From the NCBI GenBank assembly GCA_027296205.1, contig JAPUJM010000109.1, positions 1-34,548 on the forward strand: DNA of 34,548 nucleotides, given 5' to 3'. Every line of letters starts with the position of its first letter. Within the stretch, counting starts at the first letter, position 1. This stretch comes from Actinomycetota bacterium (GTDB lineage: Bacteria; Actinomycetota; Acidimicrobiia; Spongiisociales; ZC4RG35). Shown here in pieces: positions 28,625-30,502 of the stretch. A program made the translations under genes and the position numbers. The notes beneath the pieces are model-generated. The model worked only from the letters and a program-made list of their open reading frames with translations, made no database searches and was not told where the DNA came from.

Positions 28625-28909
28625 ATGGCGAGCTACAAGAAGAAGTTCATGCGTCGCATGTGGGGCGGCTCGGACGCGATGGAGGTCGGTTTCGATCGCA
28701 CCCTGCGCGGGCTACGTGAGGGTGACAGCACCGATCTCTACTTCGGTTTGGCCTTGAGCGCCCTGGCGTATCTGCAGCGAACCAAGCCGCGGAAGAAGCT
28801 GATCTACCGGCAGTCGGTCCCCGAGGGGGCGGCCATCGTGATCCATCACAAGAAGTCGGGGAATCCGCGTCTCGAGATCATCAAACCGAAGAAGCGGGCC
28901 CGCGGCTGA
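28625..28909 (+). CDS. Basic hypothetical protein (94 aa)
   Basis: First plus-strand ORF after the 28.5-kb minus-strand array. MASYKKKFMRRMWGG...; no domain I recognise. Confidence 0.5.
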   Translation: MASYKKKFMRRMWGGSDAMEVGFDRTLRGLREGDSTDLYFGLALSALAYLQRTKPRKKLIYRQSVPEGAAIVIHHKKSGNPRLEIIKPKKRARG

Positions 28910-28922
28910 CGGTCCCGTGAAT

Positions 28923-28971
28923 CGTTTTGTGAAGATCTACGCGGGTTATGGCCGCGCGAATCTTCACAAAA
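28923..28971. repeat. Left 49-bp inverted repeat (self-complementary hairpin unit)
   Basis: CGTTTTGTGAAGATCTACGCGGGTTATGGCCGCGCGAATCTTCACAAAA is the exact reverse complement of 29950-29998. Internal 12-bp stem TTTTGTGAAGAT/ATCTTCACAAAA plus inner stem CGCGG/CCGCG. Confidence 0.95.
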
Positions 28972-29005
28972 ACTATCTGTCACCCGCCGTTGGCACCCTG
29001 GTCAC

Positions 29006-29905
29006 ATGTGGGACTTGGGGAGAGTCCGTGAATACGCCCGATCCAATCATGGGGTTGTCGACAGAGCGACGGTCCTCGAACTCGGTGCCACGGATGACAT
29101 CATTCAGCGACAGGTCAACGGTGGGCGATGGGAGGAATTGAACCCCGGTGTCTATTACCTGAACGTCACTCCGATCACTTGGCACACCAGAGTCAGGGGC
29201 GCTGTCCTGGCTGCCGGAGTTGAAGCCCTGGCCTCACATCGGACGGCGGGACTGCTCTGGAACCTCGATGGTGTTGGCGGGCGAATCGTCGAGGTGACCG
29301 TTCCATATTCTGACAAGCCGATTCCGAGAGGAGTCGTGCTCCATAGAACGCGTCGCCCGCTTCCGAGCGACGTAGCCGAAGGCATCCCAACAACATCGGC
29401 GGAGCGAACGCTTCTCGACCTCGCTCGGTATCTGCCGGATTTGTTTCTCGAGAAGGCTCTGATGAGTGCCCTCCGCCAACAACTCACGACCGTCGACTCC
29501 GTGGGCCGGCTCCTTGTTGAACACGGTGGTAGCGGTGTTCGAGGGACAAAGAAGCTGCGGCGGGTCCTGGCGCTCGCTGATGACGGTATCACCGGGAGTG
29601 CCGCCGAGGTGGAGGCTGCACAGCTGATTCGGTCCGCCCCGGTATCGGCACCGGTTGCCCAGAGGGCCATTCACCTGCCCGACGGCTCCAATGCCTATCC
29701 GGACTTCTGCTGACCCGGCCGAATGAAGATTGTCGAGATCGACGGGCTCGACGCCCATTCGTCATCGGACCTTCTCCACAACGATCTTTTGCGTCAGAAC
29801 ATGCTGATGGAGCTCGGCTGGCAGATGAGACGCTTCAGCGCTCGACAAGTGAGACGCAATCCACGGTCGGTCCGCGAGGAGATCGTGAGGTTCATCAACG
29901 GTTAG
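29006..29905 (+). pseudogene. AbiEi_4-like HTH / DUF559 (Vsr-like endonuclease fold) protein interrupted by one in-frame TGA
   Basis: ORFs 29006..29713 and 29723..29905 are in the same frame (offset 717). The junction reads ...AYPDFC*PGRMKIVEIDGLDAH...GWQMRRF, matching the DUF559 core (PDFxW...vEvDG..H...D..R...L...GW.v.RF) with TGA (29711-29713) at the W position. N-terminal part: GVVDRATVLELGATDDIIQRQVNGGRWEELNPGVYYL. Confidence 0.75.
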
Positions 29906-29949
29906 CGCCCTGAGTGATGGCTTCTCACGTTTCGAGAAGGCCACCTCGG

Positions 29950-29998
29950 TTTTGTGAAGATTCGCGCGGCCATAACCCGCGTAGATCTTCACAAAACG
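29950..29998. repeat. Right 49-bp inverted repeat (self-complementary hairpin unit)
   Basis: TTTTGTGAAGATTCGCGCGGCCATAACCCGCGTAGATCTTCACAAAACG is the exact reverse complement of 28923-28971. An extra TTGTGAA half-site lies at 30000-30006. Confidence 0.95.
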
Positions 29999-30018
29999 GT
30001 TGTGAACCGATCCGGAGG

Positions 30019-30213
30019 TCAGACGCGGTAGACCTCGACGACCGTCTTGTTGCGGCGGCCTCTCTTCCGACCGACCACGAAGGCTGTGATCACCACAACC
30101 CCGATCACCACGGCGATGAGGATGGCCTTGTCCTGAGTCGAGCGTCTGGTGTCGTCGACGGCGTCGACTAGCTCGAGAGCCTTGGCCTCCAGATCATCCC
30201 GGGAGATCGTCAC
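30019..30213 (-). CDS. Small single-pass membrane protein (64 aa)
   Basis: GTG start preceded by GGAGGA. Acidic N-terminal helix, TM segment ILIAVVIGVVVITAFVV, basic tail. 20-nt overlap with the upstream ORF. Confidence 0.6.
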   Translation of the reverse strand: MTISRDDLEAKALELVDAVDDTRRSTQDKAILIAVVIGVVVITAFVVGRKRGRRNKTVVEVYRV

Positions 30214-30502
30214 TCTGCATCCTCCACACGATTATCCCTGCGGTACCTGCCGCGGCGAGGGCAGTGAGAAAACGGGAAAGAACCACCCACCACTCGCCCA
30301 CAGGAAAGACCATCTTCAGACTGTGATAGACGGCCCAGGCGATTAGGAACGCCCCAATCGACAGGACCATGGCGCCGCCGACACCCTTGGCCGCGACCTT
30401 GCCAAGACGCTTGGCGGGCTCGATCGTCTCTTGCAGGAGGTACTCCCGGGAGATGTCGATCAGCTCTGTTGCGATCTGAGGTATTTCTTGAGGTTCGGCC
30501 AT
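30194..30502 (-). CDS. Two-TM membrane protein with actinobacterial holin-X-like topology
   Basis: 102 aa. Amphipathic N-terminal helix, then the glycine-rich TM1 GVGGAMVLSIGAFLIAWAV and TM2 VVLSRFLTALAAAGTAGIIVW. Family assignment is by resemblance only. Confidence 0.55.
   Translation of the reverse strand: MAEPQEIPQIATELIDISREYLLQETIEPAKRLGKVAAKGVGGAMVLSIGAFLIAWAVYHSLKMVFPVGEWWVVLSRFLTALAAAGTAGIIVWRMQSDDLPG

Follow-up and report, generated by a model that had tools for sequence, protein, structure and literature searches.

The DNA analysed here, hereafter the window, is a stretch of 34,548 nt from contig JAPUJM010000109.1 of an Actinomycetota bacterium belonging to the class Acidimicrobiia, and represents the proteasome/ARC-ATPase neighbourhood of an Acidimicrobiia genome. 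In the window, two hairpin-forming palindromes enclose a single gene, which encodes an AbiEi-type winged-helix module fused to a Vsr/DUF559-type nuclease domain (Table 1). Here, I show that, across its occurrences in Acidimicrobiia, this low-copy AbiEi-Vsr/DUF559 gene is bracketed by two copies of a 53-bp element, further copies of which lie away from the gene as solos. I lean, though not strongly, towards reading the region as one instance of an Acidimicrobiia repeat-plus-enzyme system, similar to that of repetitive extragenic palindromes (REPs) and RAYT proteins but using a PD-(D/E)XK nuclease.

The two arms, 28923-28971 and 29950-29998, are exact reverse complements of each other (49/49), and the inverted match extends, at 98%, over 52 nt (28920-28971/29950-30001). 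The 12-nt outer stem, TTTTGTGAAGAT, occurs four times against 0.06 expected, with no occurrence elsewhere in the window, and both arms fold as stable hairpins (z = -3.4 to -5.2). By their asymmetric centre the copies are inverted, 50 of 53 positions matching in inverted and 35 of 53 in direct orientation. The 49/49 match, the hairpin form and the inverted orientation had been noticed in the initial annotation of the locus and are borne out, as are the presence of one gene only (helix-turn-helix plus DUF559) between the copies and the start of the repeat at the 14th and 21st nt past the stops of the convergent flanking genes. The arm of 49 bp, which had been taken as the repeat unit, has however to be corrected to a palindrome of 53 nt, with fixed length and conserved boxes. 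In order, the genes around it are TrmI(-), a 94-aa gene(+) (p94), the hairpin-gene-hairpin unit, a 64-aa gene(-) (p64), a holin-like gene(-) and a major facilitator superfamily transporter(+), and the GC content inside the unit is the same as that of its surroundings.

Table 1. Features of the hairpin-gene-hairpin unit and of its immediate flanks in the window
Feature	Position	Strand	Remarks
Upstream palindromic element	28922..28974		53 nt; contains the arm 28923-28971; its box holds the left breakpoint of the exchanged module
Parts of the upstream element			(C)CGTTTTGTG box; stem I AAGAT/ATCTT, 5 bp; internal loop, 3 nt; stem II CGCGG/CCGCG; loop GTTATGG; box CACAAAA
Nuclease gene	29006..29905	+	AbiEi-type winged helix (residues ~1-200) and Vsr/DUF559-type PD-(D/E)XK domain (~225-299); sole gene between the hairpins
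Premature TGA stop, in frame	29711..29713	+	TGG to TGA at an invariant Trp codon; polymorphic in the population
Downstream palindromic element	29947..29999		53 nt; inverted relative to the upstream copy; contains the arm 29950-29998
Partial box copy GTTGTGAACCG	30000..30010		11 nt; insertion directly after the downstream element
Flanking gene p94 (context, outside the unit)	28625..28909	+	Converges on p64; the stops abut in outgroup genomes
Flanking gene p64 (context, outside the unit)	30019..30213	-	

One hundred copies of the element, namely 98 chosen as no more than one per genome and stem-I type and the two arms of the window, align over 53 columns with zero gaps, its length thus being fixed. 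The ends consist of invariant boxes of 9-10 bp (CCGTTYTGTG...CACARAACGG), sequence being conserved in columns 2-10 and 44-52. Between them lie stem I (columns 11-15 with 39-43) and stem II (columns 19-24 with 30-35), free in sequence but with complementarity kept, an internal loop of ~3 nt between the stems, and an apical loop of ~5 nt. Paired cells amount to 88.5% (67.4% in shuffles), double-sided changes number 465 (186 in shuffles), and the covariation score is 0.50 against 0.14, a value attained by 0 of 500 shuffles, with slid controls at 0.07-0.17. The boxes CCGTTCTGTG and CACAGAACGG are common to all gene-flanking copies, the window genus carrying the compensated variant TTTTGTG/CACAAAA, and the CTAC/GTAG of the window copy belongs to the variable internal loop and is unconserved. 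The outermost CG, initially thought to be a possible 2-bp target duplication, is instead part of the conserved palindromic box and is present on both sides of solo copies as well. Among stem mismatches, G-T is about as frequent as A-C, and therefore gives no pointer to an RNA-strand-specific structure. As an intrinsic terminator or a known RNA the element was rejected: the hairpin is without a U-tract, a simple scan gave only weak neighbouring matches, and Rfam returned zero matches at E<=1.

Tandem doublets of the element, 13-23 nt apart, are found at some sites, including one upstream of a DUF559 paralogue (L020, 2855-2903 and 2917-2965; L178, 5128-5176 and 5200-5248). Variants of 50-51 nt with identical boxes occur in metagenome-assembled genomes (MAGs) labelled Frankiaceae, Mycobacteriales and Actinomycetes (JAVEEC: L101, L105, L111, L132, L163, L164, L177; DASVPJ: L124, L159, L160, L181; JAEVZA: L076, L093, L161), and the 8-kb loci around them hold no DUF559 relative. 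The element family may reach beyond Acidimicrobiia, or these three bins may be mislabelled.

The protein family search gave 814 matches of ~300 aa each, and 47 genomic loci were retrieved via the family alignment. Wherever the flank was available, the 53-nt palindrome precedes the gene in 36 of 37 loci of Acidimicrobiia members and follows it in 37 of 37. The upstream copy stops 31-95 nt, mostly 31-60, short of the start codon, and the downstream one starts between 1 nt inside the stop codon and 71 nt past it, mostly at 2-51 nt. The element also stands on both sides of paralogues elsewhere in the genomes, which settles a question raised in the initial annotation, paralogous units in unrelated contexts included, and of the genes of distant subfamily members with 25-40% identity (L146, L154, L063 and L088, from Microthrixaceae, Ilumatobacteraceae and other Acidimicrobiales MAGs). 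In Frankia, Microbacterium and Allokutzneria, whose DUF559 proteins are distant (28-34% identity), no such elements flank the gene, and therefore the association is specific to the Acidimicrobiia lineage. It goes beyond chance, because the background in the same loci, away from the gene, is only one solo per 187 kb. A presence-absence test of gene and hairpin via TrmI neighbourhoods was uninformative, with ~300 kb sampled against a density of ~1 per 187 kb.

The relative orientation of the flanking copies can be read at 16 loci, at 14 of which it is direct (for example 51/53 direct vs 28/53 inverted in L047, and 50 vs 37 in L021) and at two, the window and L025, inverted. A terminal inverted repeat (TIR) is therefore not the defining feature, and the description of the locus as a TIR-bounded unit is not supported. 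In most family loci (L026-L053), a conserved motif, GGGGGTTGAA, lies 5-12 nt past the upstream hairpin and ~35-40 nt ahead of an ATGTGG start; it resembles a promoter's -35 box, from which the mRNA would be leaderless or have a short leader. At this place the genus of the window carries TCTGTCAC (28976-28983), which was considered as a family-wide extra half-box and rejected, being limited to the window genus and L020 (7/35 loci).

Copies without the gene are widespread. With one genome taken per species, a scan for the window-type pattern (two outer-stem arms, any centre) yielded 13 Acidimicrobiia-type loci in four MAGs, two of which are syntenic hairpin-gene-hairpin orthologues of the window unit and 11 of which are solos without a DUF559 relative. 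A metagenome scan for the window-type element added 31 loci; from both scans, the window genus has at least 14 distinct conserved solo sites, and the solos L002 and L013, of other species, are 49/49 identical to the window arms. Using the general boxes, at least 120 element loci were found across Acidimicrobiia, four of them with a DUF559 relative nearby among the matches listed. Solos occupy 28 convergent, 36 tandem and 3 divergent gaps, as compared with 99, 228 and 74 for all intergenic gaps of the same loci, at a median of 7.5 nt from the nearest stop codon and in variable orientation relative to the neighbouring gene. A distribution beside gene 3' ends has likewise been reported for REPs (PMC3733652). 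The initial annotation had regarded a dispersed, REP-like nature of the 49-mer as grounds for dropping its proposal; many solos do lie away from DUF559 genes, but the link to the gene is systematic, and this dispersed nature is the interesting part rather than a refutation. A viral origin of the element was rejected, no copy having been found in viral contigs. Some of the MAG labels met in these scans (Boseongicola, Acidobacteria, Kiloniellales) are probably wrong, the contigs being syntenic with and closely similar to Acidimicrobiia (L002, L004, L008 and L014 of CAXMMT; L019 of JACZUI; L043 and L182 of SMXW01; L146 of JAEKLB; L222 of CAXMSN).

The inner stems are genome-specific in type, solos sharing the type of the hairpins that flank the DUF559 gene of their own genome. 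When solos are compared with the flanking hairpins of 37 genomes, 26 of 39 have their single best match in their own genome, and most exceptions come from four congeners sharing one type. The pairing extends to paralogues: JAYEGJ has two paralogues and two types, each with solos (L026 with L074 and L103:4868; L028 with L103:383), and DATKCE and JASFVB display the same match for one paralogue each. Along the same line, the rare box variant CTGGG/CCCAG flanks L028 and L047 alone, and the proteins of these two are each other's nearest neighbours. Solo sites frequently have orthologues in other genomes. At the orthologous sites L014:6844 and L103:4868, the inner parts are 36% identical, each being 94-100% identical to paralogous copies in its own genome; over deeper time, solo copies evidently get retyped. 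At one solo site L128 has an element and L065 has none. An apparent flipping of solos at one site was rejected as a contig-strand artefact, as it vanished once the contigs were oriented by their flanks.

The gene is present in one or two copies per genome. Some 25 of 38 units are syntenic with that of the window, down to ~50% protein identity, and about a dozen lie in other contexts; the sister-species orthologues L016-L018 are ~80-90% identical to the window across the region. Among the TrmI-anchored loci surveyed for empty sites, those of a more distant outgroup clade (L190-L199) have abutting p94 and p64 genes, with 9-44 nt and no hairpin between them, so that the empty sites sought in the initial annotation do exist. 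Within the nearer clade, L188 has a clean gap of 24 nt, again without a hairpin. The corresponding site of L183 (2163-2291) contains a 128-nt degenerate palindromic remnant with box-like fragments, and that of L186 (3457-4097) contains 640 nt of unrelated sequence.

Two further loci, L025 and L031, are congeners of the window by their flanks, with TrmI 89-93% identical, but their DUF559 protein is ~57% identical to that of the window and their hairpins are of a different type. Nucleotide identity to the window is 80-96% up to position 28919, falls to ~50-58% over 28920-29999, and recovers from 30000, the right breakpoint falling, like the left one, inside an element box, that of 29947-29999. 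With both junctions of these alleles inside conserved boxes, what has been exchanged, at a locus that stayed in place, is the complete module of hairpin, gene and hairpin. The unit is a discrete exchangeable module, which can be absent, duplicated elsewhere, or swapped for a divergent allele, and at the window site it is, by its synteny, ancient and not a recent insertion. Of the small mobile cassette first proposed for the locus, what stands is the discrete module, as seen in the allele exchange, the empty sites and the paralogous contexts; a recent insertion does not stand, with the same site occupied in ~25 genomes.

As to the protein, Pfam finds only DUF559 and MTES_1575 in it, DUF559 lying on the C-terminus of the intact orthologue at 27.3 bits against a cutoff of 20.6, above threshold as the initial assignment would have it, and the PADLOC AbiEi models match residues 6-169 (E=1e-21). 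In the AlphaFold model (pLDDT 91, pTM 0.83), Foldseek matches residues ~1-200 to the AbiEi antitoxin 6y8q (E=3.6e-7) and to Rv2827c (1zel), and the last ~95 residues to the catalytic domain of I-Bth0305I (3r3p, TM 0.76), to Vsr (1vsr and 1cw0, probability 0.98-0.99) and to the DUF559 structure 3hrl. Across an alignment of 40 sequences, D233, E244, D246, G247, H251, D260, R263, Q264 and N265 are invariant, with the conserved motif D...ExD...H...D, and these residues presumably form a Vsr-like active site; W236 is invariant as well. No AbiEii toxin, methyltransferase, transposase or integrase gene accompanies the nuclease gene.

In the window, the invariant Trp236 codon is replaced by TGA. Conspecific contigs, with an identical 94-aa neighbour, have TGG in L262 and L264 (intact, 299 aa) and TGA in L263 (split), their hairpins being identical to those of the window and their interiors colinear with it. 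The TGA therefore marks a null allele that segregates in the population, not a fault of the assembly. A Ser is found at the Trp236 position in the sister species L017.

The extra half-sites that had been noted outside both copies fared unevenly: that on the right (30000-30010) is an 11-nt insertion unique to the window lineage, and the GTGAA on the left is ordinary, partly conserved flank. The insertion is missing from all five aligned relatives (L016, L017, L018, L025 and L031), and the comparison with the conspecific contigs L262 and L263, which covers only its four opening bases (GTTG), gives a match. It may be a footprint of past activity.

The small neighbouring genes (28625-28909; 30019-30502) encode a basic protein of 94 aa, a membrane-anchored one of 64 aa and a third, of 102 aa, that weakly matches Phage_holin_3_6. 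The p94 and p64 products are small, unrelated proteins without a Pfam match. Across the class, these small conserved genes keep their synteny with TrmI and the proteasomal ARC ATPase.

Of the known systems, the closest in organisation is RAYT/REPtron, in which a low-copy enzyme gene lies between copies of the genome's own dispersed palindromes (PMC2817692, PMC3116915, PMC3733652). The resemblance concerns short palindromes beside gene 3' ends, a low-copy and largely vertical enzyme gene bracketed by members of a dispersed repeat family, genome-specific repeat types, and the possible coexistence of several enzyme/repeat pairs in one genome. The enzyme, however, is an AbiEi winged helix with a Vsr/DUF559 PD-(D/E)XK domain and not an HUH Y1 IS200-like transposase (PF01797). 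The element, moreover, has 53 bp and symmetric CCGTTCTGTG/CACAGAACGG boxes, in place of the 20-40 bp and one-sided GTAG (CTAC) tag of REPs, flanking copies are mostly direct, copies seemingly number tens and not hundreds, and the host belongs to Acidimicrobiia (Actinomycetota). CGTC-tagged and other non-GTAG REPs are described as seemingly without a transposase of their own (Di Nocera et al., PMC3733652); they share with the present element a palindromic extragenic nature without RAYT association, but here there is a dedicated flanked gene, and the element is longer and symmetric, with CCGTTCTGTG instead of CGTC.

The N-terminal ~170-200 residues resemble AbiEi and Rv2827c in both sequence and fold. 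Unlike the AbiE type IV toxin-antitoxin systems, the gene is alone, with no adjacent AbiEii (DUF1814) gene and with a nuclease domain at its C-terminus, and the palindromes are genome-wide repeats and not a private operator. The C-terminal fold is shared with Vsr, DUF559 and the EDxHD enzyme I-Bth0305I, the D...ExD...H...D motif being kept (D233, D246, H251 and D260 invariant). Yet there is no cytosine methyltransferase gene within or immediately beside the unit, as there would be for Vsr, and no intron or intein host as for I-Bth0305I, the gene standing alone between hairpins. Its alleles are exchanged with sharp boundaries. A gene between hairpin sites of the same orientation, conserved in their outer and variable in their inner parts, also recalls IS200/IS605 elements and attC cassettes. 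There is, however, neither TnpA (Y1 HUH) nor TnpB, the AbiEi-DUF559 fusion being the only gene, and the boxes GTTCTGT/ACAGAAC do not fit the RYYYAAC/GTTRRRY of integron attC sites, with no IntI integrase in the conserved neighbourhood. Finally, TIR transposons and miniature inverted-repeat transposable elements differ by the direct orientation of the copies in 14 of the 16 readable loci, by the target duplication, which was not seen here, and by their transposase domain.

A low-copy, vertically inherited gene bracketed by its genome's own palindromes, together with genome- and paralogue-specific types, is the kind of pattern by which RAYTs came to be recognised as the REP enzyme, and it makes the REP/RAYT-like reading of the locus the favoured one, a preference held with some reserve. 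As to mechanism, I tentatively suggest, as a possibility that may well fail, that the AbiEi-type DNA-binding and Vsr-like nuclease protein maintains and spreads its own 53-bp elements by nicking at the boxes and copy-templated repair, that is, by a homing-like gene conversion. The winged-helix module would recognise the conserved boxes, and the Vsr-like domain would nick or cut the palindrome, either as duplex or as extruded hairpin. Repair templated by another copy would then copy or convert elements, keeping the copies of a genome of one type and occasionally seeding new sites, and the upstream copy probably doubles as an operator through which the gene is autoregulated. Literature searches found no prior description of this repeat-nuclease association, in agreement with what had been supposed at the outset.

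Several observations weigh against this interpretation. Binding, cleavage and copying by the protein are all deductions, and the copy number, in the tens per genome, seems low in comparison with classical REPs. Mobilisation of REP-like elements is not a known activity of PD-(D/E)XK nucleases. Solo sites within the genus are each inherited stably and vertically, keeping their orientation and nearly their sequence, with some compensatory changes; therefore any copying is rare. In the window itself the gene is broken and its hairpins are intact and mutually identical, so that hairpins can outlast the enzyme, at least in the short term. In QIDW01, the gene is flanked by AACCG-type hairpins (L031), yet the solo is of the AAGAT type (L009); the genome may have been caught between cassette replacement and solo retyping, or it may speak against strict cognate pairing. 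Moreover, in hairpin-rich genomes element pairs also enclose ordinary genes, namely a hydrolase-like open reading frame (L115, 4223-5186) and a short-chain dehydrogenase (L130, 5123-6172), and therefore bracketing alone is not diagnostic.

The main rival to the REP/RAYT-like reading takes the solos as integration targets for a gene-plus-hairpin cassette. The gene and one hairpin would move, for instance via a circular or homing-type intermediate, and integrate site-specifically at a pre-existing solo, the gene ending up between two hairpins; solos would be landing pads, or excision scars made otherwise. Integration of a one-site circle at a chromosomal site would be expected to give direct flanking copies, as is the case at all but two of the readable loci, and would be in keeping with breakpoints inside the conserved boxes of exchanged alleles, with paralogous units at other loci, and with a nuclease domain closest to that of a homing endonuclease. 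QIDW01, too, can be seen as a new unit type amid old-type solos. I nevertheless regard such a cassette as unlikely. The empty p94/p64 sites of the outgroups and of L188 are without any hairpin, and therefore the ancestral site was not evidently a landing pad; ~25 genomes have the unit as a single, syntenic copy, and it encodes no recombinase; and, by itself, cassette movement leaves the match between solo and flanking inner-stem types unexplained.

It is that same match, in the form of types that are paralogue-specific within one genome, that also speaks against a purely cis-regulatory role, which I consider rather improbable. The hairpins of the gene would here be its own operator and terminator, in AbiEi-style autoregulation, and the solos unrelated palindromes of the host, terminators or stabilisers of 3' ends, reused at the gene, with the target of the nuclease elsewhere in the cell. 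Indeed, AbiEi proteins and Rv2827c bind inverted repeats near their own promoter and autoregulate through them (PMC7319586, PMC3985639). In most relatives the -35-like GGGGGTTGAA directly adjoins the upstream element, which ends 31-95 nt (mostly 31-60) ahead of the start codon, solos follow stop codons at a median of 7.5 nt, and the hairpins persist beside the broken gene of the window. Such a role would not account for the occupation of both sides of the gene in essentially all members, paralogues and subfamilies of 25-40% identity included, nor for a box variant that follows a protein subclade or for orthologous solo sites converted to the resident type. The hairpins, furthermore, have neither the U-tract of a terminator nor a match to an Rfam family.

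That the system acts on RNA, the elements being transcribed hairpins of 3' untranslated regions bound or cleaved by a Vsr/RAP-like domain, is highly improbable. Most copies, lying just past stop codons, are likely to be transcribed, and Vsr-like RAP domains do act on organellar RNA (PMC11879112). The stems, however, have no excess of G-T over A-C mismatches, symmetric conservation of the boxes makes the two strands resemble each other, copies have no fixed orientation towards the neighbouring gene, and the N-terminal module is a DNA-binding winged helix. An invertible switch, in which the 978-bp interior would flip between the inverted repeats, was part of the initial proposal and is close to refuted: the perfect 49-bp repeat is a possible substrate for inversion, but colinearity with the window holds for all four conspecific contigs that continue beyond the upstream hairpin (L262-L265), sister-species orthologues have the gene in the same orientation, most relatives have direct copies, and no invertase is present.

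Some same-species assemblies end near the upstream hairpin, L267 at the hairpin, L266 ~80 nt and L265 ~370 nt past it, which is consistent with the element being an assembly-breaking repeat; the element would also account for assembly breaks at these sites.

To sum up, REP-like palindromes occur widely, yet the GTAG class is the only one for which a cognate enzyme, RAYT, is known; the REP/RAYT-like reading would add a second pairing of enzyme and repeat, testable and with a wholly different catalytic fold, in a class that has been little studied and is for the most part uncultured. If the proposed mechanism were true, a REP-like element family would have, for the first time, a dedicated enzyme outside the HUH class, and the retyping of resident repeats upon exchange of the enzyme cassette would be explained. 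Cassette replacement, paralogue-specific types and a polymorphic null allele offer natural experiments on the co-evolution of repeat and enzyme, and the 53-bp element with its conserved boxes provides biochemistry with a defined substrate. For one subfamily of the 'orphan' AbiEi-DUF559 proteins of Actinomycetota, this would amount to a concrete and testable role.

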